The translations under genes were made by a program, and so were the position numbers. Below, in pieces: positions 48,330 to 64,000 of a stretch of DNA of 64,000 bases. The notes under the pieces are model-generated. The model was not told where the DNA came from. It saw nothing but the letters and a program-made list of their open reading frames with translations, and searched no databases. The stretch covers positions 35,804 to 99,803 of the forward strand of contig CAWAYJ010000020.1 in assembly GCA_963786235.1 (NCBI GenBank), in the 5' to 3' direction. Source of the DNA: an uncultured Gemmatimonadales bacterium. Lineage in GTDB: Bacteria; Gemmatimonadota; Gemmatimonadetes; Longimicrobiales; RSA9. Positions within the stretch are counted from its first letter, which is position 1. Each line of letters opens with the position of its first letter.

Positions 48330-49600
48330 TGGAACTGACGCCGCTGGATGTACGCAAGAAAAAGGGCGATTTCCGCCGGACCCTGCGCGGATACGATCCG
48401 GCTGTGGTCGACGATTTCCTGGACCTCGTGGCCGACCGGATGGAGACGCTGGTCCGCGGCGCGGCGGGCGTGAACGAGAAGATCGCCCGGCTCGAGCAGC
48501 AGGTCGCGGATTACCGCGACCGGGAAAAGGCGCTGACCGAAGCGCTGGTGACGGCGCAGGAGATGCGCGAGGAGATGCGATCCCAGTCGACCCGCGAAGT
48601 CGACCTGCTGCGTCGCCAGGCGGAAGCGGACGCGGAGTCGATCCGGGGCGAAGCGGTGCGCGCGCGGGAGCGCGAGGAGGGGGCGCTCAGCTCCTTGCGT
48701 TCGAAGCAGCTCCAGTTCCTCGCGAGCTACCGCACCTTCCTCGAGCAGGAACTGTCCGACCTCGCGGCCCACTCCCGTGCGCTCGAGATGCAGGCGGGCC
48801 GTGTCGGTGCTGCCCCGGCCCCCCGGCCCCCGTTCCGGCAGCAGGCGCCGGCGGCGTCGCCCGCGGAATCGAGGTCGACGCCGGCGCCGGAGGCAGCCCT
48901 GGCGGAATCGCGTCCGTCGCCCGGACCGCCCGTGGCACCGCAGGCCTCGAGCGCCGCCCCACCGGCCGCGATCGCGCCGGTCGTGGCGCCAGCCGTGCCG
49001 CCGATTCCAGCGGCCGAGCCGGAACCGGCCGGCGCGGGCAGCGATTCCGAGAGCGGCGAAGGGGACATCGACGCGCACGTGGGTGCGGCGCTTGCCGAGT
49101 GGACGACGGAATTCGACGACCTGCTCAAGGGCGCAAACGAAGCGGAGTCCGAGGCGGAGACGGAGTTGATCCTGTCCGACGACGACGTGGTGGCGGAGGA
49201 ACCGGAGCTGCTGCTCGACGATGGCGAAATCGCGTCGTCGGCGGCGCCGGAGCCGGTGCAGTCGGAACCGGAGCCCGAACCGGAACCGGAGCCGAAGTAC
49301 GACGAGAAGGCGTTCAAGCAGGAGGTCAGCGCGGCGTTCTCCGACACGGACGCGCCGGACGACGATCTGCTCGATCTCGACTCGTTCGACTCGCTCCGGG
49401 GCGGAGTGGACCCCGCGCTCGGCGAATCGATCGTGGGACCGCCACCGGTGATTCCTCCGGACGAGTTGACGATCAACCCCGTTTTCCTCGAGCGGGCGAC
49501 GCCGGAAGGTGAGCCGGAGGGCGGGTCGGACGAGGGCGAACGGCGGGAGCCGTCCCCTCGAGGGGACATGTTTTCGTCCATGTTCGAGGACGACGGGTGA
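48326..49600 (+). CDS. divIVA: DivIVA-domain protein with long Pro/acidic disordered tail
   Basis: LTPLDV.K...F...LRGYD...VDDFLD, coiled coil, then Pro/Ala-rich and Asp/Glu-rich tail. Confidence 0.88.
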   Translation: MMELTPLDVRKKKGDFRRTLRGYDPAVVDDFLDLVADRMETLVRGAAGVNEKIARLEQQVADYRDREKALTEALVTAQEMREEMRSQSTREVDLLRRQAEADAESIRGEAVRAREREEGALSSLRSKQLQFLASYRTFLEQELSDLAAHSRALEMQAGRVGAAPAPRPPFRQQAPAASPAESRSTPAPEAALAESRPSPGPPVAPQASSAAPPAAIAPVVAPAVPPIPAAEPEPAGAGSDSESGEGDIDAHVGAALAEWTTEFDDLLKGANEAESEAETELILSDDDVVAEEPELLLDDGEIASSAAPEPVQSEPEPEPEPEPKYDEKAFKQEVSAAFSDTDAPDDDLLDLDSFDSLRGGVDPALGESIVGPPPVIPPDELTINPVFLERATPEGEPEGGSDEGERREPSPRGDMFSSMFEDDG

Positions 49601-50454
49601 CGAGTGAGCGGGAAGAGGTCACGAAGGCAATAGAGGAAGCAGCAGCCACGATTCGAGGCCGGTCAGACACCCGGCCCGAAGTGGCGATCATCCTGGGAAC
49701 GGGACTCGGGCATGCGGCGCGCGAGATCCGTGACCCGGTCGTAATACCCTACCCCGAGATCCCGCATTTCCCGGAGCCGTCGATCGAGACGCACGACGGA
49801 CGGCTCCTGCTCGGCGAGCTCGGCGGCCGCCGGGTCGCAGCCCTCCAGGGCCGGTTCCACCGCTACGAAGGATACGACCTGGGGCAGGTGACGTTCCCGG
49901 TCCGGGTCCTGGGCGTGCTGGGCGCCCGATCCCTGATCGTGTCGAATGCCGGCGGCGGGCTGAACCCGTTGTGGTGCCCGGGTGACATCGTGGTTCTCGA
50001 CGACCACATCAACCTGTTGGGTGGGAACCCGCTCATGGGTCCGAACCTGGACGCGCTCGGTCCGCGCTTTCCGGACATGTCGGAGCCGTACGACCGGGAG
50101 CTGCAGCGCCTGGCGGAGACGGTCGCGCTGGAAGCGGGATTCCCGCTGCGGCGTGGCGTGTACGTGGCGGTGGCGGGCCCGAACCTCGAGACGAGGGCGG
50201 AGTACCGGATGCTCCGGCGTCTGGGCGCGGACGTCGTCGGGATGAGCACGGTCCCGGAAGTGATCGTGGCGCGTCACATGGGCATGAGGGTACTGGGTCT
50301 GAGCATCATCACGGATGCGTGCCTGCCGGACGCGCTGGAGCCGGCGGCGATCGATACCATCATCGAGACGGCCAGGATGGCCGAGCCGCGGCTCACGGAG
50401 CTGATCACACAAGTCCTGAGGCGGTGGCCGGGTGGAGGGAGCAAGGATGCCTGA
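49597..50454 (+). CDS. punA: purine-nucleoside phosphorylase (trimeric type)
   Basis: IILGTGLG, GRFH.YEG, GPRFPDMS, GPNLET.AE, VGMSTVPE. Confidence 0.92.
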   Translation: MTSEREEVTKAIEEAAATIRGRSDTRPEVAIILGTGLGHAAREIRDPVVIPYPEIPHFPEPSIETHDGRLLLGELGGRRVAALQGRFHRYEGYDLGQVTFPVRVLGVLGARSLIVSNAGGGLNPLWCPGDIVVLDDHINLLGGNPLMGPNLDALGPRFPDMSEPYDRELQRLAETVALEAGFPLRRGVYVAVAGPNLETRAEYRMLRRLGADVVGMSTVPEVIVARHMGMRVLGLSIITDACLPDALEPAAIDTIIETARMAEPRLTELITQVLRRWPGGGSKDA

Positions 50455-53400
50455 GGAGGCGGAAAAGCAGCCGGGTTCCCGGCCGTCCGCGACGACGTAT
50501 CCGGAGTATCCGGCGTCGCCGCAGGCGCTGGAGGAGTCGATCCTCCAGCTCTGGCGGGCGGAGGAGACGTTCCGCCGCACGCTCGCGGCGACCGCGGACT
50601 CGCCCGAGTTCGTGTTCTACGAGGGACCGCCGACGGCGAACGGCCGGCCGGGGATCCATCACGTCATCAGCCGGACCATCAAGGACCTGGTGTGCCGGTA
50701 CCAGACGATGCTGGGCCGGCACGTGACGCGGATCGCGGGCTGGGACACGCACGGGCTGCCGGTCGAGATCGAGGCGGAGAAGAAGCTCGGCATAAGCGGC
50801 AAGCGGCAGATCGAGGCGCTGGGCATCGAGCGCTTCAACGCGGTCTGCCGGGAGAGCGTGTTCACGTACAAGGAGGAGTGGGAGCGGCTGTCCGAGCGCA
50901 TCGGCTACTGGCTCGACTACTCGAATCCGTACGTCACGTTCGCCACGCCCTACATCGAGTCCGTGTGGTGGATCCTGCGCCAGCTGCACGACCGCGGGCT
51001 CATCTACCGTGGCTACAAGAGCGTGCCCTACTGCCCGCGCTGTGGCACGGCGCTCAGCTCGCACGAGGTCGCGCAGGGCTACGAGGATGTCGAAGACCCA
51101 TCGATCTACTTTCTCGCCCCGTTCCTGAACGCGGACGGGTCCGAGGACGCGGAGGGCCGGTCGTTCGTGGTCTGGACGACGACGCCGTGGACGCTGCCGT
51201 CCAACGTCGCGCTCGCGCTGAACGCCGACCTCGCGTACGTCGAAGTCGAGCACGAGGGCCGGCGGCTGGTGCTCGCCGAGCCGCGAATGCGCGCGGTGTT
51301 GGGCGATGATGCGCGCATCCTGCGCGTGTACGGCGCCTCGGAGCTGAAGGGCCAGCGCTACCGCCGGCCGTTCGACCTGGTCCCTGCGGAAGACACGGGA
51401 ACGGCGTGGCGCGTAGTGCTGGAGCCCTTCGTGACGGCGGAAGACGGCACCGGCATCGTGCACCTCGCGCCGGCGTTCGGCGCGGACGACTTCGCGGCGG
51501 GCCAGAAGTACGACCTGCCGATGCTGCGGCCCGTGGATGATGCGGGCCGGTTCGGCGCGGAAGTCCCGCTCGTGGGCGGGCAGTTCGTGAAGGATGCGGA
51601 TCCCGCGTTGGTGGAGGATCTGGAATCGCGCGGGCTGGTGTTCCGCTTCCTCTACGAAGTGCACAACTACCCGCACTGCTGGCGCTGCCGGAGCCCGCTG
51701 CTCTACATGGCGCGTGACTCCTGGTACATCCGGACGACGGCCGTACGCGACGCCATGCTGGAGAACAACGCGGCGGTCGGCTGGCACCCGCCCGAGATGG
51801 GCTCGGGCCGTTTCGGCGAGTGGCTGGCGGGCAACGTGGACTGGGCGCTGTCGCGCGAGCGGTACTGGGGCACGCCGCTGCCGGTCTGGGTGTGCGAGAG
51901 CGACGCGGAGCACATCGAGGTCATCGGCTCCCTCGCCGAGTTGGCGGATCGGGCGGGCCCGCTGGGCGCCGACTTCGATCCGCACCGCCCCTGGATCGAC
52001 GCGCTGACCTGGGACTGCGGCACCTGTGGCGGCGCCATGCGGCGCACGCCCGAGGTCATCGACGCCTGGTTCGACTCGGGCTCCATGCCCTACGCCCAGT
52101 GGCACTACCCGTTCGAGAACGACAAAGTCTGGCGCCGCCATTTCCCGGCCGACTTCATCTGCGAGGGCGTGGACCAGACGCGCGGCTGGTTCTACTCGCT
52201 GATGGCGATTTCGACGATGCTCGGACACGGTCCGGCCTATCGCGCGGTCGTGGTCAACGACCTTCTGCTCGACGCCGAAGGCCTGAAGATGTCGAAATCG
52301 CGCGGCAACGTCGTGAACCCGTGGGACGCGATCGATGAGTTCGGCGCGGACGTCGTGCGCTGGTACCTGCTCACGGTGAGCCAGCCGTGGGTGCCCAAGC
52401 GCTTCGATCCGGCCGCGCTCGCGGAGAACGCGCGTCGCACGTTCGACACGCTGGCGCACACGTACCGCTTCTTCACGCTGTACGCGAACCTCGAGGGCTG
52501 GACGCCAGCTCCGGCCGATCCAGCGGCCGGCGACCGCGGCATCCTCGACCGCTGGATCCTGTCGCGGGCGGCGGGTCTGGCGGCGGGCGTGAAGGCGGAT
52601 CTCGATGCGTACGAGGTCACGCGAGCGGCGCGCTCGATCGGCGACTTCGTCGTGGACGACCTCTCGAACTGGTACGTGCGGAGAGGGCGGGACCGCTTCT
52701 GGGGCAGCGCGGACGCGGCCGACACGCGCGCCGCCTTTGCGACGCTGCACGACGTGCTGCTCGTCGTCGCGCGGCTGCTGGCGCCGTTCACGCCGTTCCA
52801 CGCCGACTGGCTCTTCCGCGGCCTCACGGGAGCCGGCCGCAGCGTGCATCTCGAGCGCTTCCCCGGCGCCGACGGCGGGGCCGCGCTTCCGGTGCGCGAT
52901 CCACGCCTGGAAGCGGGGATGGAGGCGGTGCGCGAGCTGGTCCGGCTCGGCCGCGCGGCGCGCGAGCGGGCGCGGATCCGCGTGCGGCAGCCACTCCGTA
53001 CACTGTACGCGGTGGCGCCGGACCGGGGCGTGGTGAGCGCCGACCTGCTGGTGCTGCTGCAGGACGAGTTGAACATCAAGGACGTGCAGTTCCTCGACCG
53101 TGCGGAGGAGCTGCTCACCTACCGCGCGATCCCGAACTTCCGGGTGGTAGGCAAGCGGTTCGGCGGGCGGACGCAACGCGCGGCCGACCGGATCCGGGCG
53201 CTGGAGTCGGACGCGCTGCTCGCGTTCCGGAGCGGCGCGCCGCTGGACATCGAGCTGGATGGCGAGCGTTTCGCGCTGAGCGCAGACGAGGTCGAGTTGC
53301 GCGAGGAGCCGCGCGGCGAGCTGGTAGTGGAGACGGACGGCGGCTTCACCGTCGCGCTGGACACGAACATTGACGAAGCGCTCCGGCTGGAGGGCCTGGC

Positions 53401-53656
53401 GCGCGAGCTGGTGAACCGGATCCAGCGGCTGCGCCGCGAGGCGGGACTGCACGTGAGTGACCGGATCCGGGTCCACATCCACGGCGACGCGCAGCTCGCG
53501 GCGACCACCGCGGTCCACGGCGAATGGATCGCGGGCGAGACGCTCGCGGTCGAGCTGGGCACGGAGCAGTCGCTGCCCCCGGCCGACGCGGGGCTGCAGC
53601 AGCTGGACATCGATGGTGTCGCGGTATGGATCGGAGTCAGCCGGGTCGCAACATGA
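50447..53656 (+). CDS. ileS: isoleucyl-tRNA synthetase (type 2)
   Basis: GPPTANGRPGIHH, GWDTHGLPVE, WTTTPWTLP, KMSKS, long type-2 C-terminus (EGLARELVNRIQ.LR). Confidence 0.96.
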   Translation: MPEEAEKQPGSRPSATTYPEYPASPQALEESILQLWRAEETFRRTLAATADSPEFVFYEGPPTANGRPGIHHVISRTIKDLVCRYQTMLGRHVTRIAGWDTHGLPVEIEAEKKLGISGKRQIEALGIERFNAVCRESVFTYKEEWERLSERIGYWLDYSNPYVTFATPYIESVWWILRQLHDRGLIYRGYKSVPYCPRCGTALSSHEVAQGYEDVEDPSIYFLAPFLNADGSEDAEGRSFVVWTTTPWTLPSNVALALNADLAYVEVEHEGRRLVLAEPRMRAVLGDDARILRVYGASELKGQRYRRPFDLVPAEDTGTAWRVVLEPFVTAEDGTGIVHLAPAFGADDFAAGQKYDLPMLRPVDDAGRFGAEVPLVGGQFVKDADPALVEDLESRGLVFRFLYEVHNYPHCWRCRSPLLYMARDSWYIRTTAVRDAMLENNAAVGWHPPEMGSGRFGEWLAGNVDWALSRERYWGTPLPVWVCESDAEHIEVIGSLAELADRAGPLGADFDPHRPWIDALTWDCGTCGGAMRRTPEVIDAWFDSGSMPYAQWHYPFENDKVWRRHFPADFICEGVDQTRGWFYSLMAISTMLGHGPAYRAVVVNDLLLDAEGLKMSKSRGNVVNPWDAIDEFGADVVRWYLLTVSQPWVPKRFDPAALAENARRTFDTLAHTYRFFTLYANLEGWTPAPADPAAGDRGILDRWILSRAAGLAAGVKADLDAYEVTRAARSIGDFVVDDLSNWYVRRGRDRFWGSADAADTRAAFATLHDVLLVVARLLAPFTPFHADWLFRGLTGAGRSVHLERFPGADGGAALPVRDPRLEAGMEAVRELVRLGRAARERARIRVRQPLRTLYAVAPDRGVVSADLLVLLQDELNIKDVQFLDRAEELLTYRAIPNFRVVGKRFGGRTQRAADRIRALESDALLAFRSGAPLDIELDGERFALSADEVELREEPRGELVVETDGGFTVALDTNIDEALRLEGLARELVNRIQRLRREAGLHVSDRIRVHIHGDAQLAATTAVHGEWIAGETLAVELGTEQSLPPADAGLQQLDIDGVAVWIGVSRVAT

Positions 53657-54150
53657 GCACCAGGGTCGAGAAGGTCCGTCTGCTCGCGGTCGTGCTTGCA
53701 ACCGTGGTCCTGCTGGACCTGGTCACGAAGACGCTCGTGCAGAGCAACTTCACGCTCGACCAGCAGGTGGACGTGCTGGGAAGTGTGATCCGCCTCACCT
53801 ACATCCAAAATCCGGGCGCCGCGTTCGGTCTGTATTTCGGACCGTGGTCGCGCCAGATCTTCCTCGCGCTCTCGCTGGTCGCGCTGGTCGTGCTCGCGGC
53901 GCTCTACTGGTACACGCCCGCGCCGGACAAGGCGCGGCTGCTGGCGATCGCGCTCCTCTGCGGCGGTGCGCTCGGCAACCTCGTCGACCGGATGCGCTCG
54001 CCGCGCGGCGTCGTCGACTTCGTCGATGTCGGCCTGGGCGCGATCCGCTGGCCCGTGTTCAACGTCGCCGACATCGCGGTGACGACGGGCGCGATCGTGC
54101 TGGCGCTTTCGCTCTGGCGGGAGGATCGGCGCATTGAGCAGGGACAGTGA
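53653..54150 (+). CDS. lspA: lipoprotein signal peptidase II
   Basis: D.VTK, NPGAAFG, GALGNLVDR, VVDF, FNVAD. Confidence 0.95.
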   Translation: MSTRVEKVRLLAVVLATVVLLDLVTKTLVQSNFTLDQQVDVLGSVIRLTYIQNPGAAFGLYFGPWSRQIFLALSLVALVVLAALYWYTPAPDKARLLAIALLCGGALGNLVDRMRSPRGVVDFVDVGLGAIRWPVFNVADIAVTTGAIVLALSLWREDRRIEQGQ

Positions 54151-55111
54151 ACCGGTCCGCCACCGGCTGATCGTCGGACCGGAGCCGGCCCGCCGGCTCG
54201 ACGTCTGGATCGCGGAGCGGCTGCCGGATCTCTCGCGGAGCCGCGTCGCGCAGCTGGTCGAGCAAGGTCGCGTAACACGGAACGGCCGCGTTCCGAAGAA
54301 GCGGGATGCGCCCGAACCGGGCGACGTGATCGAGATCGAGATTCCGCCGCCCGAACCTTCCGCGCTGCTTGCCGAAGCGATCCCGCTCGACATCGTGCAC
54401 GAGGACGATGACCTGCTCGTCATCGACAAGCCCGCCGGACTCGTGGTGCACCCCGCGCCCGGGCACCGCACCGGAACGCTCGTCAACGCGCTGCTGCACC
54501 ATGTCGGCGAGCTCACATCGATCGGCGGCGTCCGCCGCCCCGGCATTGTTCATCGGCTCGACAAGGAGACGTCCGGCCTCATGCTCGTGGCGCGGACCGA
54601 CTTCGCGCACCGCGCGCTGTCCGCCGCGCTGAAGCGGCGCGCCGTGCGACGCGCGTACCTCGCCGCCGCGTGGGGGCACGTGGCGAGCGACGAGTTGACC
54701 GTCGATGCACCCATCGGCCGCTCCGCCAATGATCGCAAGCGCATGGGCGTCGTGGCCGGCGGCAGATCGGCCGTGACCCATTTCCGCCGCCTCGAGCGCT
54801 GGGTCGCGGCCGATCTGCTCGAGGCCCGGCTCGAAACCGGTCGCACCCACCAGATCCGCGTCCACCTCATGTCCATCGGACACCCCGTCGTCGGCGATCC
54901 CGAGTACGGCGGCGGTGGAGACCGAGGAATGAGTGGGCCCGGCCGGGCGTGGGCCCGAGAGCTCGCCCGCCGCGTACCACGCCAGTTCCTGCACGCGTAC
55001 GAGCTGGAGTTCCGACACCCGCGGACGGGCGAGACGCTCCGCTTCCGTTCCCCGCTTCCGCCCGACCTGGCCGCTGCCGCCGATTGGGCCCGGGCGGACC
55101 CGAACCGTTGA
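54134..55111 (+). CDS. rluD: RluA-family pseudouridine synthase (RluD-like, S4 domain)
   Basis: RLD, KPAGLVVHP, HRLDKETSG, TGRTHQIRVH, GD..YG. Confidence 0.92.
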   Translation: MSRDSEPVRHRLIVGPEPARRLDVWIAERLPDLSRSRVAQLVEQGRVTRNGRVPKKRDAPEPGDVIEIEIPPPEPSALLAEAIPLDIVHEDDDLLVIDKPAGLVVHPAPGHRTGTLVNALLHHVGELTSIGGVRRPGIVHRLDKETSGLMLVARTDFAHRALSAALKRRAVRRAYLAAAWGHVASDELTVDAPIGRSANDRKRMGVVAGGRSAVTHFRRLERWVAADLLEARLETGRTHQIRVHLMSIGHPVVGDPEYGGGGDRGMSGPGRAWARELARRVPRQFLHAYELEFRHPRTGETLRFRSPLPPDLAAAADWARADPNR

Positions 55112-55182
55112 CCCCGGAGAGGCGCCATGACTACTGTTGGGAACCCCCACCCGCCTTTCTCCCCGAAACGCGTACAGCGGTG

Positions 55183-55602
55183 ATGGACGACCGCGAGCAG
55201 GCTCAGCCCCGGGCGCCGAGCCCCGAGTTCCGCCGCGTCCTCGCGCGATGCGGGTCGCGTTCGGTGCTGATTGCGCTCGACAGAGTCTCGGAAATACTTA
55301 TGCCTCAGCCCTTTACAAGGATCCCGGGGGCCGGGCCCGAGGTTTGCGGCCTGATCGGGGTCCGCGGCCGCGTCCTGACGGTGTTCGACCTCTGTGGGTT
55401 GCTCGGCGAGAAGCCCATCGACACGGCTCGGGACCACCGGATCCTGGTCGTGAGGGCCGCCGACCGGGTCGTCGGGCTGGCCGTCCCCGACGTCGCGACG
55501 GTGGCGGAGGACGAAGCGGGCGACGTGGCGGAGGCGGCGCCCGGAACGGCAAAGGCGGAGGAACTGGATCTCGATCGGCTGATCCGCTCGAAGCTTGCGT
55601 GA
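55183..55602 (+). CDS. cheW: CheW-like adaptor (DifC-like)
   Basis: V.EI...FTRIPG....GLIGVRGRVLTVFDL, GLAV..V; start uncertain. Confidence 0.8.
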   Translation: MDDREQAQPRAPSPEFRRVLARCGSRSVLIALDRVSEILMPQPFTRIPGAGPEVCGLIGVRGRVLTVFDLCGLLGEKPIDTARDHRILVVRAADRVVGLAVPDVATVAEDEAGDVAEAAPGTAKAEELDLDRLIRSKLA

Positions 55603-55638
55603 GCAACAGCCGATATTTGAAAAGAGAAAGAGGAAACA

Positions 55639-56001
55639 ATGGCTCGACGAATTCTGATATGCGACAATGCGCTGTTCATGCGCACGATGCTGGCCGAGAT
55701 CCTGGAACAGGCGGGATTCGAGGTGTCGGGGCAGGCGGCGAGCGGGACGGAGGCGGTGCGCCTGTATCGCGAGCTGCAGCCGGACCTGGTGACGATGGAC
55801 ATCATCATGCCGGACATGGGTGGGATCGACGCGGTGAAGGAGATCATGCGGCAGAACCCGGACGCGAACATCGTGATGTGCAGCGCGATGGGCCAGCAGA
55901 GCCTGGTGATCGAGGCGATCCAGGCCGGTGCCCGTGACTTCGTCGTGAAGCCGTTCCAACCGTCGCGCGTTCTGGAGGCGGTCCAGCGGGTCCTGGGCTG
56001 A
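55639..56001 (+). CDS. cheY: CheY-like single-domain response regulator (DifD/Bacillus-type)
   Basis: LFMR, PDLVTMDIIMP, MCSAMGQ, DFVVKPF. Confidence 0.92.
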   Translation: MARRILICDNALFMRTMLAEILEQAGFEVSGQAASGTEAVRLYRELQPDLVTMDIIMPDMGGIDAVKEIMRQNPDANIVMCSAMGQQSLVIEAIQAGARDFVVKPFQPSRVLEAVQRVLG

Positions 56002-56006
56002 GCGTT

Positions 56007-57788
56007 GTGCCGTCCGAGCGTTTCCTCGAACTCTACCGAGCCGAGTCCCGTGATTGCCTGCGCAGGCTGACGGGAAACGCACTGGCGCTGGAACGCGGCG
56101 AGCCGGGCGCGCTCGAGGAAGCGTTCCGCGCCGCCCACACACTCAAGGGCATGGCCGCGGCGATGGGTCACCGGGAAGTGGCCGAGACCGCGCACGGCAT
56201 CGAGGATCGGCTCGCGGAGGTCCGCGACGCGAAGCGCACGGCCGACGGTGCCCTCATCGACGACCTCCTCCTGCGTGCGGATGCCATGGAAGCGGCGCTT
56301 TCGGGCGATGCCGACATGGGAGTGGCGCCAGTCGAGGACCCGCGGGCGTCGCCGGGGCGGGAATCCGGCTGGCGCCCCTCGCCGCCGCGCGTGGAGGGTG
56401 CCGAAGCGGTCGTGTCGGCCCGTATCCGCCCGGACGCGGCGCTGCCGGCTGCGCGGGCGCTGGCGCTGGCCGGGGCGGCCCGGCGCTCGGGCGGTGTGGT
56501 GGCGGTCCGGCCGGAGACGCCGGCCGAGGAATTCGATGATGTCCTGCACGTATACCTCGAGTCGGCCGGAGCCGCGCAGGCGCTGGCGGCGCGGTGGCGC
56601 GAGGAGCGGGACATCGCGGCGGTGCACGTGGAGGGGAAGGGAACGGTGGCCTCGCCGCCGGTCCCCGCCCAGCCGAACGGGTCCGCCGGACCCACGATCC
56701 GGGTTGACCGGGAGCGGCTCGACCGTCTGGCGGAGGGCATCGCGGAGCTGGCCGTGCATTTCGCGACGTCGGACCGCGGTGCGGCGGGAAACGGCCAGGA
56801 GCGGGCGAGCGCGGTGGTGGCGGCCCTGCAGCGGACGATTCTCGAGCTGCGTACGGTTCCGGTCCGCGTCGTCCACGACCGTGCGCTGCGGGTGGTGCGC
56901 GACGCGGCGCGGGCCGTGGGGAAGGAGGTCGATCTCGAGTTCGGCGGCGGCGAGATCGAGATCGACCAGGCGGTGCTGGACGCGGTGACCGACCCGCTGA
57001 TGCACCTGTTGCGGAACGCGGTGGATCACGGCATCGAGGCGGCTCCCGATCGGGGAACGGCCGGCAAGCCGAGACGGGGCCGGATCCGGCTGGAGGCGGA
57101 GCGTGAGCGGACGAGCGTCCGGATCACGGTGAGCGACGACGGCCGGGGCGTGGATGCGGAGCGGGTCCTCGCGAAGGCGGCCGCCCTCGGCATCGCGGCG
57201 GCGGATTCGCGCGACGAGACGCTGCTCCGCGTCATGATGCAGCCGGGGTTCACGACCGCAAGCTCGGTCTCCAAGGTGTCGGGGCGCGGTGTCGGGCTGG
57301 ATGCCGTGAGCGCGCAGATCCGCGGTCTGGGCGGCGCGATCGACATGACGAACATGCCCGGGGCGGGAACGACCTTTACTCTTCGTGTCCCGTTCACGCT
57401 CGCCATCGTGCCCGGACTCCGGGTCCGGATCGCGGGCGACGAGTACGCGATGCCACTGACGCACGTGGCGGAAGTCGCCTCCCTGGGCCGCGATCTCGTC
57501 GGCCGGGACGGCGACCGCGAGTTCGTGCGAGTCCGCGGCGTGGCGGTCCCGCTGGTACGGCTGCGCGGGATCCTGGGCGCGGAACCGTCGGGGGACGAGC
57601 CGGCCGCGGTGGTGGTGGAGCTGGGCGAGCGGCGGATCGCGCTGGCCGTCGATGAAGTGCTGGAACACGAACCGATCGTGGTGAAGTCGTTCGACGCGCC
57701 CGTGGGCGCGCCGCCGATCTTCACCGGAGCGACGGTCCGGCCGGACGGCCGACCCGTGCTCCTGCTCGATCCGATGAGCGTGGGCTGA
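56007..57788 (+). CDS. cheA: CheA-like histidine kinase (HPt, HATPase, CheW domains)
   Basis: FRAAHTLKG, IRVD..RLD.L, HLLRNAVDHG, DDGRG, PGFTT, SGRGVGLD, C-terminal CheW domain. Confidence 0.92.
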   Translation: MPSERFLELYRAESRDCLRRLTGNALALERGEPGALEEAFRAAHTLKGMAAAMGHREVAETAHGIEDRLAEVRDAKRTADGALIDDLLLRADAMEAALSGDADMGVAPVEDPRASPGRESGWRPSPPRVEGAEAVVSARIRPDAALPAARALALAGAARRSGGVVAVRPETPAEEFDDVLHVYLESAGAAQALAARWREERDIAAVHVEGKGTVASPPVPAQPNGSAGPTIRVDRERLDRLAEGIAELAVHFATSDRGAAGNGQERASAVVAALQRTILELRTVPVRVVHDRALRVVRDAARAVGKEVDLEFGGGEIEIDQAVLDAVTDPLMHLLRNAVDHGIEAAPDRGTAGKPRRGRIRLEAERERTSVRITVSDDGRGVDAERVLAKAAALGIAAADSRDETLLRVMMQPGFTTASSVSKVSGRGVGLDAVSAQIRGLGGAIDMTNMPGAGTTFTLRVPFTLAIVPGLRVRIAGDEYAMPLTHVAEVASLGRDLVGRDGDREFVRVRGVAVPLVRLRGILGAEPSGDEPAAVVVELGERRIALAVDEVLEHEPIVVKSFDAPVGAPPIFTGATVRPDGRPVLLLDPMSVG

Positions 57789-57791
57789 TTG

Positions 57792-58409
57792 ATGCGACCG
57801 GAACGACTGGGCGAACTGCACCTCGATGCCTTGCGGGAGACCGCCAACATCGGCGCAGGCCACGCGGCCACGGCGCTGTCCGACCTGAGCGGGCGCCGGG
57901 TCATGGTTGACGTGCCGGACGTCGCGATCCGCCCGATCGACGAGGTCGCCGAGCTGCTCGGGGATCCGACCCAACCGGTGGCCGCGGTCATCGTCCGGGT
58001 ATCGGGCGACCTGAACGGCCGGGTATTGCAGGTCTTCGAGGGACGGGCGGCCGTCACGCTGGTGCACCTGCTCCGGGGTGGCGCCGAACCGGACTTCCCG
58101 GCCGGCTTCGACACGGTCGAACGGTCGGCCATGAAGGAGATCGGAAACGTCCTGGTCGGGACCTACCTGAGTGCCCTCTCCGCCCTCACCGGACTGAGCG
58201 CGACCATGACCATTCCGTCTTTCGCGCTCGACATGGCAGGTGCCATTCTGGTCGCAGGCTACGTCGATCCGGCCGTCGAGGAGGACTACGTCATTTCCAT
58301 CGCGACCCGCCTGGGTGTGGACGGGAGCGAGGATCTGCGCGCACATTTCCTCCTGATACCGGATGAAGCGTCGCTCGTGAGGATCCTCAAAGCGCTGCAC
58401 GTCGAATAG
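57792..58409 (+). CDS. cheC: CheC-family phosphatase (DifG-like)
   Basis: DALRETANIGAGHAATALS and SAMKEIGNV (two ExxN sites), DMAGAIL. Confidence 0.92.
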   Translation: MRPERLGELHLDALRETANIGAGHAATALSDLSGRRVMVDVPDVAIRPIDEVAELLGDPTQPVAAVIVRVSGDLNGRVLQVFEGRAAVTLVHLLRGGAEPDFPAGFDTVERSAMKEIGNVLVGTYLSALSALTGLSATMTIPSFALDMAGAILVAGYVDPAVEEDYVISIATRLGVDGSEDLRAHFLLIPDEASLVRILKALHVE

Positions 58410-61127
58410 ATGGAAATTGAACGGCAAGGAAGCCAGCAGCCCGCGGCGCTCCCGTGGCGAGACCGGCCGGACCCGCGGCCGGCGCCGGGCACGCACCGCT
58501 CTTCGAGGGACGCCGACATCCTGCGTGCCCTCGCCCAGCGGATCCCGTCCGGCGACGCCGCCGCGAACAACAACCTCGGCGTCGTCTACTTCCAGAAAGG
58601 CCTGCTACCGGAAGCGGTCTCGCAGTTCGAGCGCGCGCTCCAGATCGATCCCATCCTCGAGGTCGCCGAACGGAACCTGCAGATCGCCTACTTCAGCGGC
58701 GACTTCTACGACGCGTCCGTGCGTTCGCTGCACGTCATGCTCAGGCGCGATCCGAGCGACACGTCGGCGCGGCGACGCCTGGCCCGCATGTACCTGTGGG
58801 GTGGCGACGCGGCCGCCGCACTGCGCGAGCTGCACCAGCTGCGAGCCGCGTTCCCGCGTGATCCCGGCATCTGGCACGAGGTCGCCCGCGCCGAGGAACG
58901 GACGGGCGATCTCGACGCCGCGCTGCAGGCGCTGGCGGAGGCGGACCGGATCGCGCCGGGCAACGCGAAGACCGGCCTGCGCATGGGCGAGGTGTTGTAC
59001 CGTCACGGTCATCTCGAGGATGCGAGAGGACGGCTGGAGCTCGTGCTCCAGGCCGATGACACCAACGCGGAAGCGCACCATCTGCTCGCGCGCGTCTTCG
59101 ATGCGCTGGGCGAAACGGATGCGGCGCGGCGGGAGGCGGGCTTCGCCGCGGCACTGAATCCGGCGTGGGATCGAGCCGACGGTGGTCTGGCGCTCGACGT
59201 GGAGGAAGAGCGGGAAGCGGCCGCGGCGCGCCAGCTCGGCGTCGACGAGACCGGCACGCTGGCGCGCTACAACGTCGGCATCGCACTGCGCCAGAAGGGC
59301 CGCTACGGGGAGGCGGAGCAGGAGCTGGAGCGGGCGTTGCAGCAGGGTGAGGACCCGTTCCTCGTACGTCAGGCGCTGGCGGAGCTGCGCCTGTTGCGCG
59401 GCGATGAAGAGGCGCCTTCCGCGTACGCGGACCTGCTCGAACTCGAGCCGGCGAGTCCGAAGTTGTGGAACGAGCTGGGCGTGTCGCACCACCTGCAGGG
59501 GCGGCTGGCGGAGGCGCAGGACGGGTACGAACGGGCGCTGGCGTTGGATGCCGGATACGCGCTGGCCTGGAATAACCTCGGCGTGGTGCGCCACGACCGG
59601 CGCGAAGGCGATGCGGGCGCCGCGCTGGAGTCGGCGCTGCAGACGGGCCGGGCTCTGGGCGAGGTCTGGCGCAACCTCGGCTGGCTGCGTCACCGCGAAC
59701 AGCAGATCAGTGAAGCCGAGCACGCGTACCGGCGCGCGTTGGACGCCAATCCGGAATCGGCGGGGGCGTGGACGGGTCTCGGCATGCTGTTCCTCGAACG
59801 GGGCGACACGGAATCGGCGCGGGCGGCGCTGGCGCGTGCGGTCGAGGCCGATCCGGACCTCGCCGAAGCCCGCTACCACCTCGCTTTCGCGTTGTCCGCG
59901 TCGGGGGATTATCACGGAGCGCTCCGCGAGACGGGCCGGGCGCTCGAGCTCAGCCCGTACCTGACGACGCCCCGGTTCCGGCTGCTCGTCGAACTGCAGT
60001 TCGAGGACGCCGCCGTCTCCGCGCCGGACCTCGGAAGCGGGACGCAGGTGGGGGCCGGTGAGAGGGTCGAGCGGTTCGACTTCGAGCCGGATCTGATCGA
60101 GACGCTGCTGCAGCCGGACGGCGGTGCGGGCGCGCCGGACGCGAACGGCGCTGTCGAGCCATCGGCGCGGAACGCGACGCCGTCGGCTCCGGCTTCGATC
60201 GAATGGCTGGCGGCCGCGCGCGCGACGCTCGAGTCGGGGCAGTACACACAGGCAATGTCGGACGTGCAGCGAGCGGGCGCGCTCGGCGCCAATCCGATCG
60301 AGGTCCAGCTTCTGCAGGGCGAGATCTTCCTGGCGGGCGGTGCCGCGGGCGAGGCCGTGGAGCGGTTCGCTTCGGTGCTGGACGGTCTGCAGCGATTGGG
60401 CGATCCGGCCAACGCCCCGATCGACGTGCGTGATCTGGTGATCCGCGCGCTTGATGGCATTGCGCGCGCCAACCTCGATCTGGACCGTGCCTCCGTGGCG
60501 CGCCGCTACGCGGAACAGCTTCACGCGTTCGCGCCCGACACGCCCGGCGTCGCCGAACTGTTGGCCGAGGCACTCGAAGCGGCGGGCGATCCGGCGCGTG
60601 CGGCGGCAGTCATCGAGTCGGCGCTGGAGAGCGCACCGGGCCAGGTCAGCCTGCTCGCCCGGCTCGGCATGGCCTACTTCGAGATGGGCGACGCCGCGGC
60701 CGCCGAACCCGTGCTGCGCCAGGTCGCGGAGGCCGCCGGGGGAATGCCGGCGGCGCGGGCGACGCTGGCCCGGCTGCTTGTCGGCCAGAACCGGTTCGAC
60801 GAAGCGGAATCGCAGTACCGCATGGCGCTCGACGCGGTGCCGAGCTACGGCGAGGCGGCGGTCGGCCTGGCGGACCTGTTCGCGGAGACCGGCCGCTTCG
60901 ACGACGCGGTGGACGTGCTCGCCGGTTTCCTGGGGGCAGACCCGTACCACAAGGGCGCGCTGGTCCGGCTCGGCAATGTGTTGTGGCAGGCGGGCCGGCA
61001 CGAGGAGGCGAGCTTCGCGTACCGACGCGTTCTGCGCTACGAGCCGGGACACGAAGCGGCGCGGGAAGCGCTGGAGCGTCTCGAGCCGGAGGAACCCATG
61101 GCGCTGATGACGGGATCGGAGTCGTGA
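58410..61127 (+). CDS. large cytoplasmic tetratricopeptide-repeat protein
   Basis: Many TPR motifs (NNLGVVYFQKG, ARYNVGIAL, WNELG, WNNLG, ARYHLA); no signal peptide. Confidence 0.88.
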   Translation: MEIERQGSQQPAALPWRDRPDPRPAPGTHRSSRDADILRALAQRIPSGDAAANNNLGVVYFQKGLLPEAVSQFERALQIDPILEVAERNLQIAYFSGDFYDASVRSLHVMLRRDPSDTSARRRLARMYLWGGDAAAALRELHQLRAAFPRDPGIWHEVARAEERTGDLDAALQALAEADRIAPGNAKTGLRMGEVLYRHGHLEDARGRLELVLQADDTNAEAHHLLARVFDALGETDAARREAGFAAALNPAWDRADGGLALDVEEEREAAAARQLGVDETGTLARYNVGIALRQKGRYGEAEQELERALQQGEDPFLVRQALAELRLLRGDEEAPSAYADLLELEPASPKLWNELGVSHHLQGRLAEAQDGYERALALDAGYALAWNNLGVVRHDRREGDAGAALESALQTGRALGEVWRNLGWLRHREQQISEAEHAYRRALDANPESAGAWTGLGMLFLERGDTESARAALARAVEADPDLAEARYHLAFALSASGDYHGALRETGRALELSPYLTTPRFRLLVELQFEDAAVSAPDLGSGTQVGAGERVERFDFEPDLIETLLQPDGGAGAPDANGAVEPSARNATPSAPASIEWLAAARATLESGQYTQAMSDVQRAGALGANPIEVQLLQGEIFLAGGAAGEAVERFASVLDGLQRLGDPANAPIDVRDLVIRALDGIARANLDLDRASVARRYAEQLHAFAPDTPGVAELLAEALEAAGDPARAAAVIESALESAPGQVSLLARLGMAYFEMGDAAAAEPVLRQVAEAAGGMPAARATLARLLVGQNRFDEAESQYRMALDAVPSYGEAAVGLADLFAETGRFDDAVDVLAGFLGADPYHKGALVRLGNVLWQAGRHEEASFAYRRVLRYEPGHEAAREALERLEPEEPMALMTGSES

Positions 61128-61128
61128 C

Positions 61129-62259
61129 ATGGCGATAGAGGGACCTCTCCGTGAACTCGGCATCCAGGATGTGCTGCAGCTGCTCGAGCTGGCCGGCAAG
61201 ACGGGAGTCCTGACGGTCCGCTCGGAACGGCTCAATGACGAGGCCATCGTCCATTTCAAGAACGGCGAGATCGTGTTCGCGGTCCGCCGGCGCTCGACCC
61301 GCCGCATCGGTCAACTCCTGATCCGCGCGGGCCAGCTCACGCGGCCGGAGCTGGAGCAGGCGCTCGAAACGCAGCGTTCCGATCCGACGCGCCGTCTCGC
61401 CGAGATCCTGCTCGAGACCCGGGTCGTCTCGCAGACGGAACTGGAACGGCAGCTCCGGTTCCAGATGGAGGAAACCGTCTACGAGCTGATGACGTGGGAG
61501 GAAGGCTACTTCAAGTTCGAGGAGCGCGACGAGGTCGGCCGGCAACCGCTGATCTCGCGGGTGCGCGTCGACTCGCTGTTGATGGAAGGCGCGCGCCGCC
61601 TCGATGAATGGACACGGCTGGAATCGAAGGTGCCGAGCGCCGAAGCGATTCCGGTGCTCGCACCCGCCAGTGATCGCGATGTCGCGCCGCTCGACCTGAC
61701 CGTCGAGCAGTGGGAGCTGTTGGCCGAGGTGGACGGCGAACGCGATATTCGGCAACTTGCGGCGGACCTCGGACGTAGCGCGTTCGACATCGCCAAGACG
61801 GTGTTCGCGCTCGTGTCCGTCGGGATCGTGCAGGTGCAGGAGCAGACCACACAGCTGCCCGAGGAGCAGTTGCGTCGGTCCGTGCTCGAAGTACACGCCC
61901 TGCTCGGCGCCGGCCAGCTCGAGCGCGCACGAAAGCTCGCGATGGATCTCGAGTCGGCGCATTCGGACCGGGCGGAACTGGCCGTGCTCACCGGCCGCGT
62001 GCTGGCCACGCAGGGCCGGCTTCGCGCCGCCGCCGACGCGTTTGCGCGCGGCGTGAACCTGGATCCGTTGGCCGCGGAAGCGCACCTCGAGCTCGGGTTC
62101 GCGTCCGTCCGGACCGGTAACTTCGACCGGGCCGTGCGCGCCTGGGAAACGTACCTGCGACTGACGCCCGATGGCGAACACCGTGATTCCGTGGCGGGTG
62201 CGCTGGACGCCGCCCGCACCCTTTCTTCGATCCTGGAGCTGGCACCGGCACCCGCATGA
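61129..62259 (+). CDS. DUF4388 (PATAN-like) + MshEN-like + TPR protein
   Basis: MAIEGPLRELGIQDVLQLL...KTGVL, F..G.IV.A, tandem RIG..L...G.L....LEQAL..Q motif, W.EG.F.FE, LLMEGARRLDEW, C-terminal TPRs. Confidence 0.85.
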   Translation: MAIEGPLRELGIQDVLQLLELAGKTGVLTVRSERLNDEAIVHFKNGEIVFAVRRRSTRRIGQLLIRAGQLTRPELEQALETQRSDPTRRLAEILLETRVVSQTELERQLRFQMEETVYELMTWEEGYFKFEERDEVGRQPLISRVRVDSLLMEGARRLDEWTRLESKVPSAEAIPVLAPASDRDVAPLDLTVEQWELLAEVDGERDIRQLAADLGRSAFDIAKTVFALVSVGIVQVQEQTTQLPEEQLRRSVLEVHALLGAGQLERARKLAMDLESAHSDRAELAVLTGRVLATQGRLRAAADAFARGVNLDPLAAEAHLELGFASVRTGNFDRAVRAWETYLRLTPDGEHRDSVAGALDAARTLSSILELAPAPA

Positions 62260-63266
62260 AAACTCCTGCCCCCGCCGATCTGCATCGCTGGAGCGAGGAA
62301 CTCGCGCGCAATCCTGCGTCGTTGGCGTTCCTGCCTCTGGCACGGGCCTATCGCCGGCTGGGACGCCGCGACCTGGCCCTGCAACTCTGCCTGCGTGGCC
62401 TCGACCATCACCCGACTCACGTCGAGGCGCATGCACTGCTCGCGCTGCTCCACTTCGAGGCGGGCGACCGCTCGCGCGCGGCCGAGGAATGGGCCACCGT
62501 GCTCCGCCTCAAGCCGGGCAACTTCGAGGCGCTGCGCGGAATGGGGTTCCGCTACCTCGAGCAGAATGATGTCACCCGCGCACGGCAACATCTCGAACGC
62601 GCCGCCCTGATCCGGCCCGACGACACGACGGTGCAGGAGGCGCTCCGCCTCATCCGGCACCGCGAGGGCACGGCAGCGCGAGGACGGCCCGAGCCCACGA
62701 TCGTTCGCCCGCCACGCGCCGCGCCGGCGGCCGCGGAGCCTGCGCGTGCCGCACCGCTGCCGCCGCCGGCTGCGTCGGCACCCGCACCACCCGGCGCGCC
62801 GCCCGCAACCCGGACACCACCTGCGGTCGCAGCGGCACCGCCGCCGCCCGCTCCGCCCGCTCCGCCGCCGGCGCGCCCGACCGCGCCGCTGGAGTTGCCG
62901 CCGGATCCGACGACACTGTTCGATCCGCTCATGGGCGCGGGCCCGCTGCTCGGCGTGCTGCTGCTGGACCGGCGCGGGCTGGTGCTGGCGGGCAGCATGC
63001 GCACGGAGGGCGCGACCATGGAGGACCTGGGCGCGATCATCGGCGCGGCGATCGACGAAGCGATCCGCACGGTCGAACACCTCGCGCTGGGTGAATGGCA
63101 GAGCCTGGTGCTGCAGAGCGAGGGGGCCGTGCTGCAGGTGGCGCCGGTCACGGATGAGGCGCTGATTATCATGGCGGCGCGGCACGGCACGCCGATGGGC
63201 TGGATCCTGCGCGCATCGGCGCAGGCTGCCGCCCTGGCCGAGCGGTATGTGGGAGCGGGCGTATGA
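62256..63266 (+). CDS. TPR - Pro-rich linker - roadblock/LC7 domain protein
   Basis: N-terminal P.S.AF..LA.AYRR.G TPRs, Pro/Ala linker, C-terminal GVLLLDRRGLVLAG roadblock fold. Confidence 0.8.
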   Translation: MKTPAPADLHRWSEELARNPASLAFLPLARAYRRLGRRDLALQLCLRGLDHHPTHVEAHALLALLHFEAGDRSRAAEEWATVLRLKPGNFEALRGMGFRYLEQNDVTRARQHLERAALIRPDDTTVQEALRLIRHREGTAARGRPEPTIVRPPRAAPAAAEPARAAPLPPPAASAPAPPGAPPATRTPPAVAAAPPPPAPPAPPPARPTAPLELPPDPTTLFDPLMGAGPLLGVLLLDRRGLVLAGSMRTEGATMEDLGAIIGAAIDEAIRTVEHLALGEWQSLVLQSEGAVLQVAPVTDEALIIMAARHGTPMGWILRASAQAAALAERYVGAGV

Positions 63267-63631
63267 CGGACGAATACCGGGAGACGATTGCCGGACTGAG
63301 CCGTGTGCCGGGCGTGACCGGCGCCCTCGTGGTGGACCCGGACGCCGGCGTGCCGGTGGTCGAGGAGTTGCGTCCCGATGTCGCGGGGCCGGCGACTGCG
63401 GCGCTCACGGCCGCGCTCTTCCGGCGGACGGCGCAGGCGGCGGAGGCGGCCGGATTCCAGCGGCTGGACAGCCTGCAGCTCGAGGCGACGGGCGGCCAGG
63501 TCCTGATCACGGATGCTGGCGGACTCGTGGTGATCGCGCTCATCGAAGACGACGCCCAGATGGGCCGGGTCCGGCTGGAGTCCAATCGGGCGGCGCGCGC
63601 GCTACGCCGTATCGCGGAGCGGGAAATATGA
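63263..63631 (+). CDS. roadblock/LC7 domain protein
   Basis: L.RVPGVTGALVVD..G.PV...AALTA, LEATGGQVL, MGRVRL. Confidence 0.85.
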   Translation: MTDEYRETIAGLSRVPGVTGALVVDPDAGVPVVEELRPDVAGPATAALTAALFRRTAQAAEAAGFQRLDSLQLEATGGQVLITDAGGLVVIALIEDDAQMGRVRLESNRAARALRRIAEREI

Positions 63632-64000
63632 GAAGCTCCGATCTGCCCGGGCTGGTCGCGGCGCTGAAAGGCCCGGTCGATGAGTTCGTGCGCGATGCGC
63701 GCGTCCGCATCTCGATCGTGATCACCGGCAGCGGCCAGGTGCTCGGCCGGCACGGATTCACGAGCAGCTACGAGGTCATGAACGTCGCCTCGCTGGCCGC
63801 GGCCGCGTACGCGTCGGCCCGCGCCCTCGCCGAGCTGACACAGACCGGACACTGGACGCACATGCACCACGCGGGGCGGAACCAGCAGCTGTTCCTGGCC
63901 CCGCTCGAAACGCCCGTCGAGAAGCTGATCCTGGTCGCGATCTTCGACGCGGAGTCGTCGCTCGGACTGGTGCAGTTCTTCTTCGCCCGGCTGGCGGAAC
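63628..64000 (+). CDS. MglB-like roadblock protein (3' truncated by window)
   Basis: Not in the ORF track; ATG 63628 overlaps the previous stop and reads MRSSDLPGLVAALKGPVDEFVRDARVRISIVITGSGQVLGRHG...VASLAAAAYASARALAELT...HHAG...ILVAIFDAESSLGLVQ, resembling MglB (VIFD..TSLGLV). Confidence 0.8.
   Translation, partial: MRSSDLPGLVAALKGPVDEFVRDARVRISIVITGSGQVLGRHGFTSSYEVMNVASLAAAAYASARALAELTQTGHWTHMHHAGRNQQLFLAPLETPVEKLILVAIFDAESSLGLVQFFFARLAE

Follow-up and report, generated by a model that had tools for sequence, protein, structure and literature searches.

The DNA examined here is a window of 64,000 nucleotides (G000:C20:35804-99803; contig CAWAYJ010000020.1) from an uncultured Gemmatimonadales bacterium, whose last nine kilobases carry chemosensory (che) genes followed by genes for tetratricopeptide-repeat (TPR) and roadblock proteins. 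The same contig runs on for a further 10 kb, and this continuation (locus L006, G000:C20:99000-109820; extrapolated window coordinates are obtained by adding 63196 to the L006 coordinate) completes the set. Together, 15 genes on one strand span ~15.4 kb in the order cheW-cheY-cheA-cheC-TPR905-PATAN1-TPR/Robl-Robl2-mglB1-mglA1-AAA2-PATAN2-cheR-cheD-cheB. The unit is a methylation-competent, complete CheAWYCRDB pathway that is physically wrapped around a dedicated MglA/MglB module, the mgl genes separating the kinase half of the che set from its adaptation half. This operon suggests that chemical sensing steers a polarity switch in mostly flagellum-less bacteria, probably for pilus-driven surface movement.

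A single unit of che and mgl genes

The nine plus-strand genes that an initial annotation had read in the window were recovered by open reading frames (ORFs) and Pfam at the same places and with the same domains (Table 1), and third-position GC agrees with their called frames. The tight spacing that it had described from cheY onwards, with genes at most 5 nt apart or overlapping as ATGA, was likewise found. A gap of 36 nt separates cheW from cheY and 5 nt separate cheY from cheA; the next junctions measure 0, 0 and 1 nt, and three ATGA overlaps follow. The mglB1 stop and the mglA1 start overlap by 1 nt as TGATG. From cheY through cheB, every junction is a gap of at most 7 nt or an overlap, and all 15 frames are open. 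The MglA-type GTPase that had been predicted past position 64000 is present, with mglA1 directly following the third roadblock gene. The statement that no receptor, cheR, cheB, cheD or flagellar gene is encoded holds for the ~49600-64000 part that was examined, but for the che genes it is an artefact of the window edge, as cheR, cheD and cheB lie 4-6.5 kb past 64000. The Dif-like cassette without CheR and CheB that the annotation had proposed is thus not what the locus holds: these three genes close the same operon, and therefore the set is a complete CheAWYCRDB set, with the W-Y-A-C order as its only Dif-like trait.

The cheD gene sits in a different frame, overlapped by a 5′ extension of the cheB ORF that is spurious. 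A whole-genome CheD search placed cheD there, which ruled out a long N terminus of CheB as the product of the sequence that follows cheR.

Table 1. Genes of the unit and the gene next to it (window coordinates, or L006 coordinates where marked)
Gene	Position	Strand	Product and evidence
cheW	55183..55602	+	139 aa; Pfam CheW 4.6e-20, model positions 3-93 of 138 only
cheY	55639..56001	+	120 aa, single-domain response regulator; Response_reg 4.7e-30
cheA	56007..57788	+	593 aa; Pfam Hpt, linker, HATPase_c kinase, CheW domain
cheC	57789..58409	+	206 aa, predicted phosphatase of phosphorylated CheY; Pfam CheC/CheX
TPR905	58410..61127	+	905 aa; many TPR families (Pfam)
PATAN1	61129..62259	+	376 aa; DUF4388/PATAN 8.9e-30, MshEN-like helical insert, C-terminal TPR
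TPR-Robl	62256..63266	+	336 aa; N-terminal TPR, Pro/Ala-rich linker, C-terminal Robl_LC7 1.1e-5
Robl2	63263..63631	+	122 aa; stand-alone Robl_LC7 1.4e-7
mglB1	63628..64000, L006 432-923	+	163 aa in full; Robl_LC7 1.7e-7; gene end 119 bases beyond window
mglA1	L006 923-1540	+	205 aa; group-1 MglA
AAA2	L006 1548-3251	+	567 aa; two DnaA-type AAA+ modules
PATAN2	L006 3255-4874	+	539 aa; DUF4388 9.8e-36, MshEN-type motif, TPR
cheR	L006 4861-5763	+	Pfam 1.9e-45
cheD	L006 5760-6251	+	whole-genome CheD search
cheB	L006 6238-7347	+	receiver + methylesterase; CheB_methylest 6.7e-54
Peptidase_MA_2 gene	within ORF L006 7200-8429	+	start uncertain; membership in unit doubtful

Conservation across Gemmatimonadota

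A scan with MglA1, restricted to one genome per species, returned 80 loci, nearly all labelled Gemmatimonadota; the labels include Longimicrobiales, Gemmatimonadales, Gemmatimonadaceae and, for locus L071, Gemmatimonas sp., with a few others or a plain 'bacterium'. Partner genes were counted by tblastn, with loci that have enough flank as denominators; the relatives are kin, so that the counts express conservation and not independent events. In almost every sufficiently long locus the genes are collinear on one strand, with protein identities of 30-75%. Because dozens of related genomes share this collinear order, the arrangement is not due to chance, and the view of the che, TPR, PATAN and roadblock genes as one conserved unit stands. 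Upstream of the GTPase gene we found CheW in 29/40 loci, CheY in 39/41, CheA in 41/43, CheC in 43/45 and TPR905 in 45/46, followed by PATAN1 (56/57), TPR-Robl (60/63), Robl2 (58/71) and MglB (73/74). Downstream, AAA2 was present in 64/71 loci, PATAN2 in 62/62, CheR in 57/59, CheD in 50/59 and CheB in 47/48, and cheD lies between cheR and cheB in 47/47. All 13 partner genes (cheD not among them) occur together in 18 of the 33 fully flanked loci, and all partners except CheW, AAA2 and Robl2 in 29 of these 33. Some of the CheW and Robl2 misses are probably failures of sensitivity, as both are small, fast-evolving proteins.

Departures from this arrangement are few. Seven loci (L040, L047, L048, L054, L059, L060 and L082) have neither AAA2 nor cheD, and in them a shorter PATAN2-like gene comes directly after mglA. 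Locus L074 keeps the block from TPR905 to PATAN2 with no che gene on either side and with a Peptidase_MA gene directly after PATAN2; therefore, the GTPase module can exist without che genes in cis. In L084, labelled Planctomycetota, MglA is 58% identical and no other cluster gene lies in the 10 kb upstream; the downstream flank of this locus is only ~0.6 kb long.

The GTPase module and a second mglB-mglA pair

MglA1 aligns over its full length with Myxococcus xanthus MglA (5ymx, 1.5e-70) and carries the motifs GAGRSGKT, TDRTLFFD and TVPGQ. When it is compared with the motif definitions of group-1 MglA given in passages of Wuichet and Sogaard-Andersen 2014 (PMC4316618), three features agree. 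The G3 mark of the group (TVPGQ, not DxxGQ) is found in MglA1 as YTVPGQV and is conserved in 78 sequences. The intrinsic arginine beside the G2 threonine lies in TETDRTLFFD, which aligns with the same residues in M. xanthus MglA. Finally, mglB and mglA stand in tandem, overlapping in our locus and with MglB upstream in the 73 of 74 loci counted above. The best solved relative of MglB1 is M. xanthus MglB (6izw_B, 5.5e-10, residues 16-159), and the NCBIfam MglB model gives 27.7 bits against a cut-off of 200. From these likenesses, MglB1 is a candidate GTPase-activating protein (GAP) for MglA1. The best solved relatives of Robl2 are generic roadblock proteins (7f8m, 3.7e-5), with MglB weaker.

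A second mglB-mglA pair is encoded on contig C14 (locus L088 8451-13191, minus strand), directly after dnaX-ybaB-recR and a 109-aa ORF. Its GTPase, MglA2, scores 300 bits with M. xanthus MglA, compared with 240 bits for MglA1. As MglA2 is the nearer of the two to M. xanthus MglA, the GTPase of the operon is a dedicated, more divergent paralogue.

The chemosensory proteins

The best solved relative of CheY is Thermotoga maritima CheY (1tmy, 8.4e-49), and archaeal CheYs are also close. No other protein of the cluster is as conserved as CheY, which has 69-77% identity across 32 relatives; the mean column identity in 33 sequences is 89%, and the C-terminal face is near-invariant. This conservation argues for conserved partners of CheY even in the absence of a flagellum. 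CheA has a single Hpt domain and no receiver domain. Among NCBIfam models it scores highest with CheA_Halo (323 bits, versus 232 bits for the Escherichia coli-type PRK10547), and both scores are under the respective cut-offs. CheC matches T. maritima CheC (1xkr, 2.7e-30) and the NCBIfam model CheC_Thtogales (152 bits, cut-off 250), and its translation has both copies of D/S-x3-E-x2-N, which we take to be the defining CheC motif.

Taken together, the Che set looks like the Thermotoga/Bacillus/archaeal type, that is, F1-like, an assignment based on best matches to solved structures and on NCBIfam models scoring below their cut-offs. CheC and CheD are present along with CheA, CheW, CheY, CheR and CheB; this combination, like the Thermotoga and haloarchaeal models, presumably marks class F1 in the chemosensory class scheme, which is said to be that of Wuichet and Zhulin 2010. 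Control of a flagellum or archaellum, which also belongs to F1, has no counterpart in the genome under study, where neither FHIPEP nor FliG_C is found. Multi-Hpt and receiver-bearing forms of CheA are described in passages of PMC10782961 as typical of the type IV pilus (Tfp) and alternative cellular function (ACF) classes.

PATAN, TPR and DnaA-type proteins

Both PATAN proteins have the DUF4388 domain with an insert of ~37 aa relative to the model, and both end in TPR repeats; the C-terminal receiver of PatA-type proteins is not present in either. The MshEN label that had been attached to this part of the operon holds at the level of the motif, which in both proteins lies within the helical insert: NF053729, a model for the MshE-related cyclic di-GMP (c-di-GMP) motif with a cut-off of 38 bits, scores 48.5 bits on PATAN2 and 37.7 bits on PATAN1. 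The MshEN motif consists of two tandem 24-residue copies of RLGxx(L/V/I)(L/V/I)xxG(L/V/I)(L/V/I)xxxxLxxxLxxQ (PMC5013675). PATAN2 has one strict 24-residue copy at residues 57-80 and a second copy in which D replaces G; PATAN1 has no motif by the relaxed pattern. Among orthologues, at least one relaxed motif occurs in 31/58 PATAN1 and 37/64 PATAN2 sequences, compared with 1/668 control proteins, and two relaxed motifs occur in 12/64 PATAN2 and 0/58 PATAN1 sequences. Because relaxed motifs are frequent in the orthologues and so rare in the controls, binding of c-di-GMP by the PATAN proteins is plausible. In Synechocystis, PATAN binds the N-terminal domains of PilB1 and PilC, according to excerpts of a preprint (bioRxiv 10.1101/2021.06.11.447907). 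Look-alike clusters of PATAN2 in the Protein Atlas, which we treat as leads only, are mostly from Gemmatimonadota, and one PATAN-TPR cluster is labelled WOR-3.

AAA2 has a Bac_DnaA match (1.4e-65), after which a second, looser AAA module follows. TIGR00362 gives 301 bits (cut-off 344) and covers model positions 102-336 of 437 only. The part that matches is DnaA domain III, which is complete: the Walker A/B, sensor and arginine motifs are kept, and 62 sequences show conservation of GLGKTHL, DDVQ, DRPP and GNVRELQGALNR. DnaA domains I, II and IV are absent, so that AAA2 is neither a DnaA with domain IV nor the single-domain, clamp-binding Hda form. With part of contig C21, presumed to be dnaA, it shares 44% identity. 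Its look-alike clusters in the Protein Atlas, mostly from Gemmatimonadota, are labelled 'DnaA/Hda family' or hypothetical.

Receptor, flagellar and pilus genes in the genome

The genome, a member of the Gemmatimonadota and 98.7% complete, was searched for the remaining parts of a chemosensory system. CheA, CheC, CheR, CheD and CheB are each single-copy; the CheW domain has two matches, both in the unit, hence there is one CheW; and the only two PATAN proteins are also those of the unit. MCPsignal, the signalling domain of methyl-accepting chemotaxis proteins (MCPs), has a single match, on a different contig and among unrelated neighbour genes. The likely true form of this MCP is 564 aa long, with two hydrophobic segments ~165 aa apart followed by a HAMP and a signalling domain. 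Full-length orthologues were found in 5/5 relatives at 35-58% identity, similar to that of CheA in the same genomes, and this parallel divergence is consistent with a receptor that belongs to the system although its gene is unlinked. The distance from the cluster to the nearest MCP is ~0.3 Mb or more in three complete relatives. The flagellar markers FHIPEP (FlhA) and FliG_C have no match in the genome. T2SSE ATPases have seven matches, including a pilB-pilT-pilC row in which PilB carries MshEN.

These findings bear on several expectations of the initial annotation. A receptor unlinked to the operon had been named as one possible input, and the only MCP is indeed on another contig and unlinked in the three complete relatives as well. 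The lineage, judged not to look myxobacterial, belongs to the Gemmatimonadota. For the output by type IV pili, surface motility or exopolysaccharide that the annotation had suggested, type IV pilus motor genes are present and no flagellar marker was found, and exopolysaccharide remains untied to the system. It had also considered that the missing genes of an ordinary flagellar system might lie immediately downstream; cheR, cheD and cheB do lie there, but there is no flagellar system for them to serve.

In the complete relatives, a double-CheW gene follows cheB (G401 C1 2190968-2191756, G402 C1 592248-593108 and G403 C1 4300995-4301842). A CheW-like match also follows cheB in L008, and the double-CheW gene is absent from the genome under study.

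The pilus row lies on contig C35 (L089 1719-11535, minus strand), where pilB (MshEN + T2SSE, 759 aa), pilT and pilC are followed by a tyrosine recombinase gene (Phage_integrase 1.8e-42). After the recombinase come three tandem 158-aa ORFs without a Pfam match; together they could form an array of pilins or cassettes that the recombinase switches. Adjoining pilB, a 2059-aa ORF (L089 12637-18816, minus strand) has a third-position GC of 0.93.

Phyletic pattern of CheA, FlhA and the MglA paralogues

CheA was counted at E <= 1e-20 in 401 genomes sampled from the phylum, with a query that can also match other CheAs; the CheA and FlhA tallies include the unpublished genomes G057, G097, G157 and G182, and the MglA tallies include G455, G097, G444 and G412. 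CheA is present in 269/401 genomes and FlhA in 99/401, and therefore at least 170 genomes have CheA without FlhA. By family, CheA versus FlhA counts are 155 versus 33 of 166 genomes in f4, 86 versus 47 of 93 in f5 and 5 versus 0 of 5 in f8. Two families are nearly without CheA (f2, 1/70; f7, 0/30). Many flagellated genomes have two or three CheA matches, and some have one.

Within the order to which our genome belongs (101 genomes), two MglA matches, at 60-77% and 53-58% identity, were found in 28/33 genomes of f1 and 29/33 of f3. In f2, by comparison, 13/34 have a single match at 48-57% and 0/34 have two. The pattern thus indicates that the MglA1-type paralogue travels with the che genes and that the MglA2 type does not need them.

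A working model

We favour, with somewhat more confidence than doubt, a single hard-wired system in which a Che pathway controls MglA-dependent polarity, Frz-like in its logic. We infer the following chain of steps. The unlinked transmembrane MCP would control CheA through CheW; CheA would phosphorylate CheY, CheC would reset phosphorylated CheY (CheY-P), and CheR, CheD and CheB would adapt the receptor. CheY-P would affect where MglA1 is localised or how it cycles between nucleotide states, by way of the roadblock set, in which MglB1 would be the GAP and Robl2 and TPR-Robl would make up another roadblock pair; AAA2, the double AAA+ protein derived from DnaA, is perhaps also involved. GTP-bound MglA1 would then work through the TPR and PATAN-TPR proteins on PilB and PilC, and the outcome would be that the pole of type IV pilus activity is set or switched. 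The assignment of type IV pili as the output is drawn by analogy, and we hold it only tentatively, a little short of even confidence.

In Myxococcus, Frz response regulators act at MglB-marked poles, and MglA has TPR effectors. The step from PATAN-TPR proteins to PilB and PilC is proposed because of these TPR effectors and the binding by Synechocystis PATAN. The step from CheY to the roadblock proteins is proposed because of the analogy with the Frz response regulators and with roadblock complexes, which act as GAPs and as guanine-nucleotide exchange factors (GEFs) according to passages of PMC9481161. A complex prediction for CheY with MglB1, Robl2 and the TPR-Robl roadblock domain, based on 33-row alignments, scored 0.00, which is evidence neither way; its four-chain design is also unlike the calibration of the tool.

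Several observations weigh against the system as we propose it. Co-transcription can mean a shared regulon instead of signalling between modules. CheY is about maximally close to the flagellar-type T. maritima CheY, and in flagellated relatives with a single CheA match a flagellar output is conceivable. The canonical polarity switch could be the second mglBA pair, in which case MglA1 may have another role. The link to pili is an analogy with cyanobacteria and Myxococcus, and the full tandem MshEN motif remains in just the 12 PATAN2 orthologues noted above. The sub-lineage of seven loci shows that AAA2 and cheD are both not essential to the core. The sequencing runs listed for the stretch comprise 20 DNA runs (two with at least half of the words) and no RNA run.

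A stronger version of the proposal would make the operon a self-contained machine, in which CheY-P from an F1-derived pathway drives the dedicated MglA through a three-roadblock GAP/GEF set with AAA2 as an additional switch, and c-di-GMP-sensing PATAN-TPR proteins serve as adaptors to the pilus motor. In this complete form we consider it rather unlikely, if worth entertaining.

Alternative explanations

The genes might instead encode modules that are co-transcribed but work in parallel, CheY-P acting directly on its target and MglA1, MglB1 and the roadblock proteins defining the poles independently, with the genes staying together only through a behaviour that needs both. PilG and PilH of Pil-Chp systems are a model for such direct action of CheY-P. 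The sequences reveal no contact of CheY with a roadblock protein or with MglA, and the PATAN proteins could bind the pilus motor on their own, to judge from excerpts of the literature. Moreover, the partners of MglA are unlinked to mglA in Myxococcus and Bdellovibrio in passages of PMC4316618. Such independence sits poorly with an mgl block that is nested inside one che set, joined by stop/start overlaps and kept across families at 30-50% identity, and with MglA1-type paralogues that track CheA from family to family. We regard parallel modules as unlikely.

A second possibility is an output other than motility, such as polar growth, budding, the choice of division site or a step of the cell cycle, with AAA2 as a link to replication and the Che pathway as an environmental gate. 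Gemmatimonas is described as dividing by budding. AAA2 is found in 64/71 loci and keeps a complete DnaA domain III, 44% identical to the presumed dnaA and with motifs conserved in 62 sequences, and the separate, canonical mglBA pair could serve motility. However, AAA2 has neither the DNA-binding domain IV nor domain I and is lost in one sub-lineage, the unit contains no gene for cell division or replication, and PATAN and MshEN-type motifs have so far been linked, in excerpts of the literature, with the ATPases of pili and of type II secretion. An output of this kind is quite improbable.

That the unit is an ordinary F1-type flagellar chemotaxis operon with an inserted mgl block, decaying as a relic in a flagellum-less genome, is highly improbable: the CheAWYCRDB set, a CheY and a CheC that match those of Thermotoga best, a CheA that matches haloarchaeal models best, and FlhA in 99/401 phylum genomes would suit such an origin, but the reading is largely contradicted by 15 open, tightly coupled frames, by CheY columns that are on average 89% identical in 33 sequences, by at least 170 of 401 genomes with CheA and without FlhA (our own having no FHIPEP and no FliG_C) and by the two or three CheA matches of many flagellated relatives, though some have one.

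Likeness to known systems

The nearest parallel is the Frz-MglA/MglB(/RomR) system of M. xanthus. Both combine a pathway of MCP, CheW, CheA, CheR and CheB with a group-1 MglA and a roadblock GAP, both have multiple roadblock proteins (MglB and MglC in Myxococcus), and the presumed output of both is pole switching of type IV pilus motility. In Frz, FrzE is a CheA-CheY fusion kinase and FrzCD a cytoplasmic receptor; the Gemmatimonadota unit, in contrast, has neither a CheA-CheY fusion nor a FrzZ-like double receiver, and its MCP is transmembrane. The Gemmatimonadota set also differs in having cheC and cheD, in its best matches to Thermotoga and haloarchaeal models, and in its extra TPR-Robl, Robl2, two PATAN-TPR proteins and DnaA-type double AAA+ protein. 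Whereas frz, mglBA and romR are unlinked in Myxococcus according to passages of PMC4316618, the Gemmatimonadota genes form one operon.

The cyanobacterial Tax/Pix systems with PatA-type (PATAN-REC) proteins resemble the unit in that a chemosensory pathway is encoded along with PATAN proteins, and excerpts of the literature describe a PATAN helical insert that resembles the PilB N terminus and MshEN, with type IV pilus polarity as the output. In Gemmatimonadota, by contrast, the fusion partner of PATAN is TPR instead of a receiver, CheY stands as a protein of its own, the plain CheA has one Hpt and lacks a receiver domain, and an MglA/MglB module is added. The Dif system of M. xanthus (difA-difG) shares the cheW-cheY-cheA-cheC order and a CheC-type phosphatase. 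It differs in that the Gemmatimonadota receptor is not adjacent and cheR, cheD and cheB lie inside the unit; nothing ties the Gemmatimonadota system to exopolysaccharide. With the Thermotoga/Bacillus/archaeal (F1) systems, the unit has in common the list of CheA, W, Y, C, D, R and B and the best-scoring structures and models, but the genome has no flagellum or archaellum to control and the set is split around a GTPase module.

Actinobacterial conservons (CvnA-D) likewise encode a histidine-kinase-type sensor, a roadblock protein and an MglA-family GTPase in one operon, as described in passages of PMC4316618. They have a membrane HAMP kinase, a DUF742 protein and a group-2 MglA, whereas the Gemmatimonadota unit has CheA with a separate receptor and a group-1 (TVPGQ) GTPase. 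We rejected a conservon assignment.

Relation to earlier work

No description of this operon was found in the main texts of the open-access papers and preprints that were searched; Table S2 of PMC4316618, which covers the neighbourhoods of MglA genes and includes a Gemmatimonadetes genome, may list part of this one. Passages of that paper note that MglA and MglB genes are sometimes neighbours of PATAN genes, and passages of Guzzo et al. 2015 (PMC4546325) propose that the Frz circuit arose when MglAB was recruited to a chemosensory system. According to passages of both papers, Frz acts on MglA/MglB in Myxococcus, where the genes are dispersed and debate over the contact points continues. In Gemmatimonadota, the entire parts list lies in one operon that is kept across the phylum, which bears on how Che pathways came to control MglA/MglB. 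It also defines a minimal group of candidates among which the missing links may be sought: CheY, the TPR protein and the AAA+ protein, each present once, along with two PATAN-TPR and three roadblock proteins.

The Gemmatimonadota are a widespread, poorly studied phylum of soils and sediments, and the analysis gives a likely function to the sole chemosensory system of many of its flagellum-less members. It also flags a DnaA-derived double ATPase that may take part in a polarity circuit. If the stronger version of the proposal is correct, the operon would be an independent, single-operon solution to the problem that Frz and MglAB solve, and AAA2 would be the first case of a small-GTPase polarity circuit taking up the ATPase fold of a replication initiator.

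Flanking features

Upstream of cheW on the same strand (window 49597-55111) lies a housekeeping row of a PNP_UDP_1 phosphorylase gene, ileS, lspA and rluD; because ileS, lspA and rluD precede it, cheW is taken as the first gene of the unit. A promoter scan returned no promoter-like site, and terminator-like sites were at or below the shuffle expectation (2 versus 2.7 and 3 versus 4.0). Near the end of the contig (L006 8892-10756), Arm-DNA-bind_3 and Phage_int_M and then Phage_integrase were found on two overlapping ORFs in different frames. This split gene beside the operon is probably a broken integrase at the border of a mobile element.

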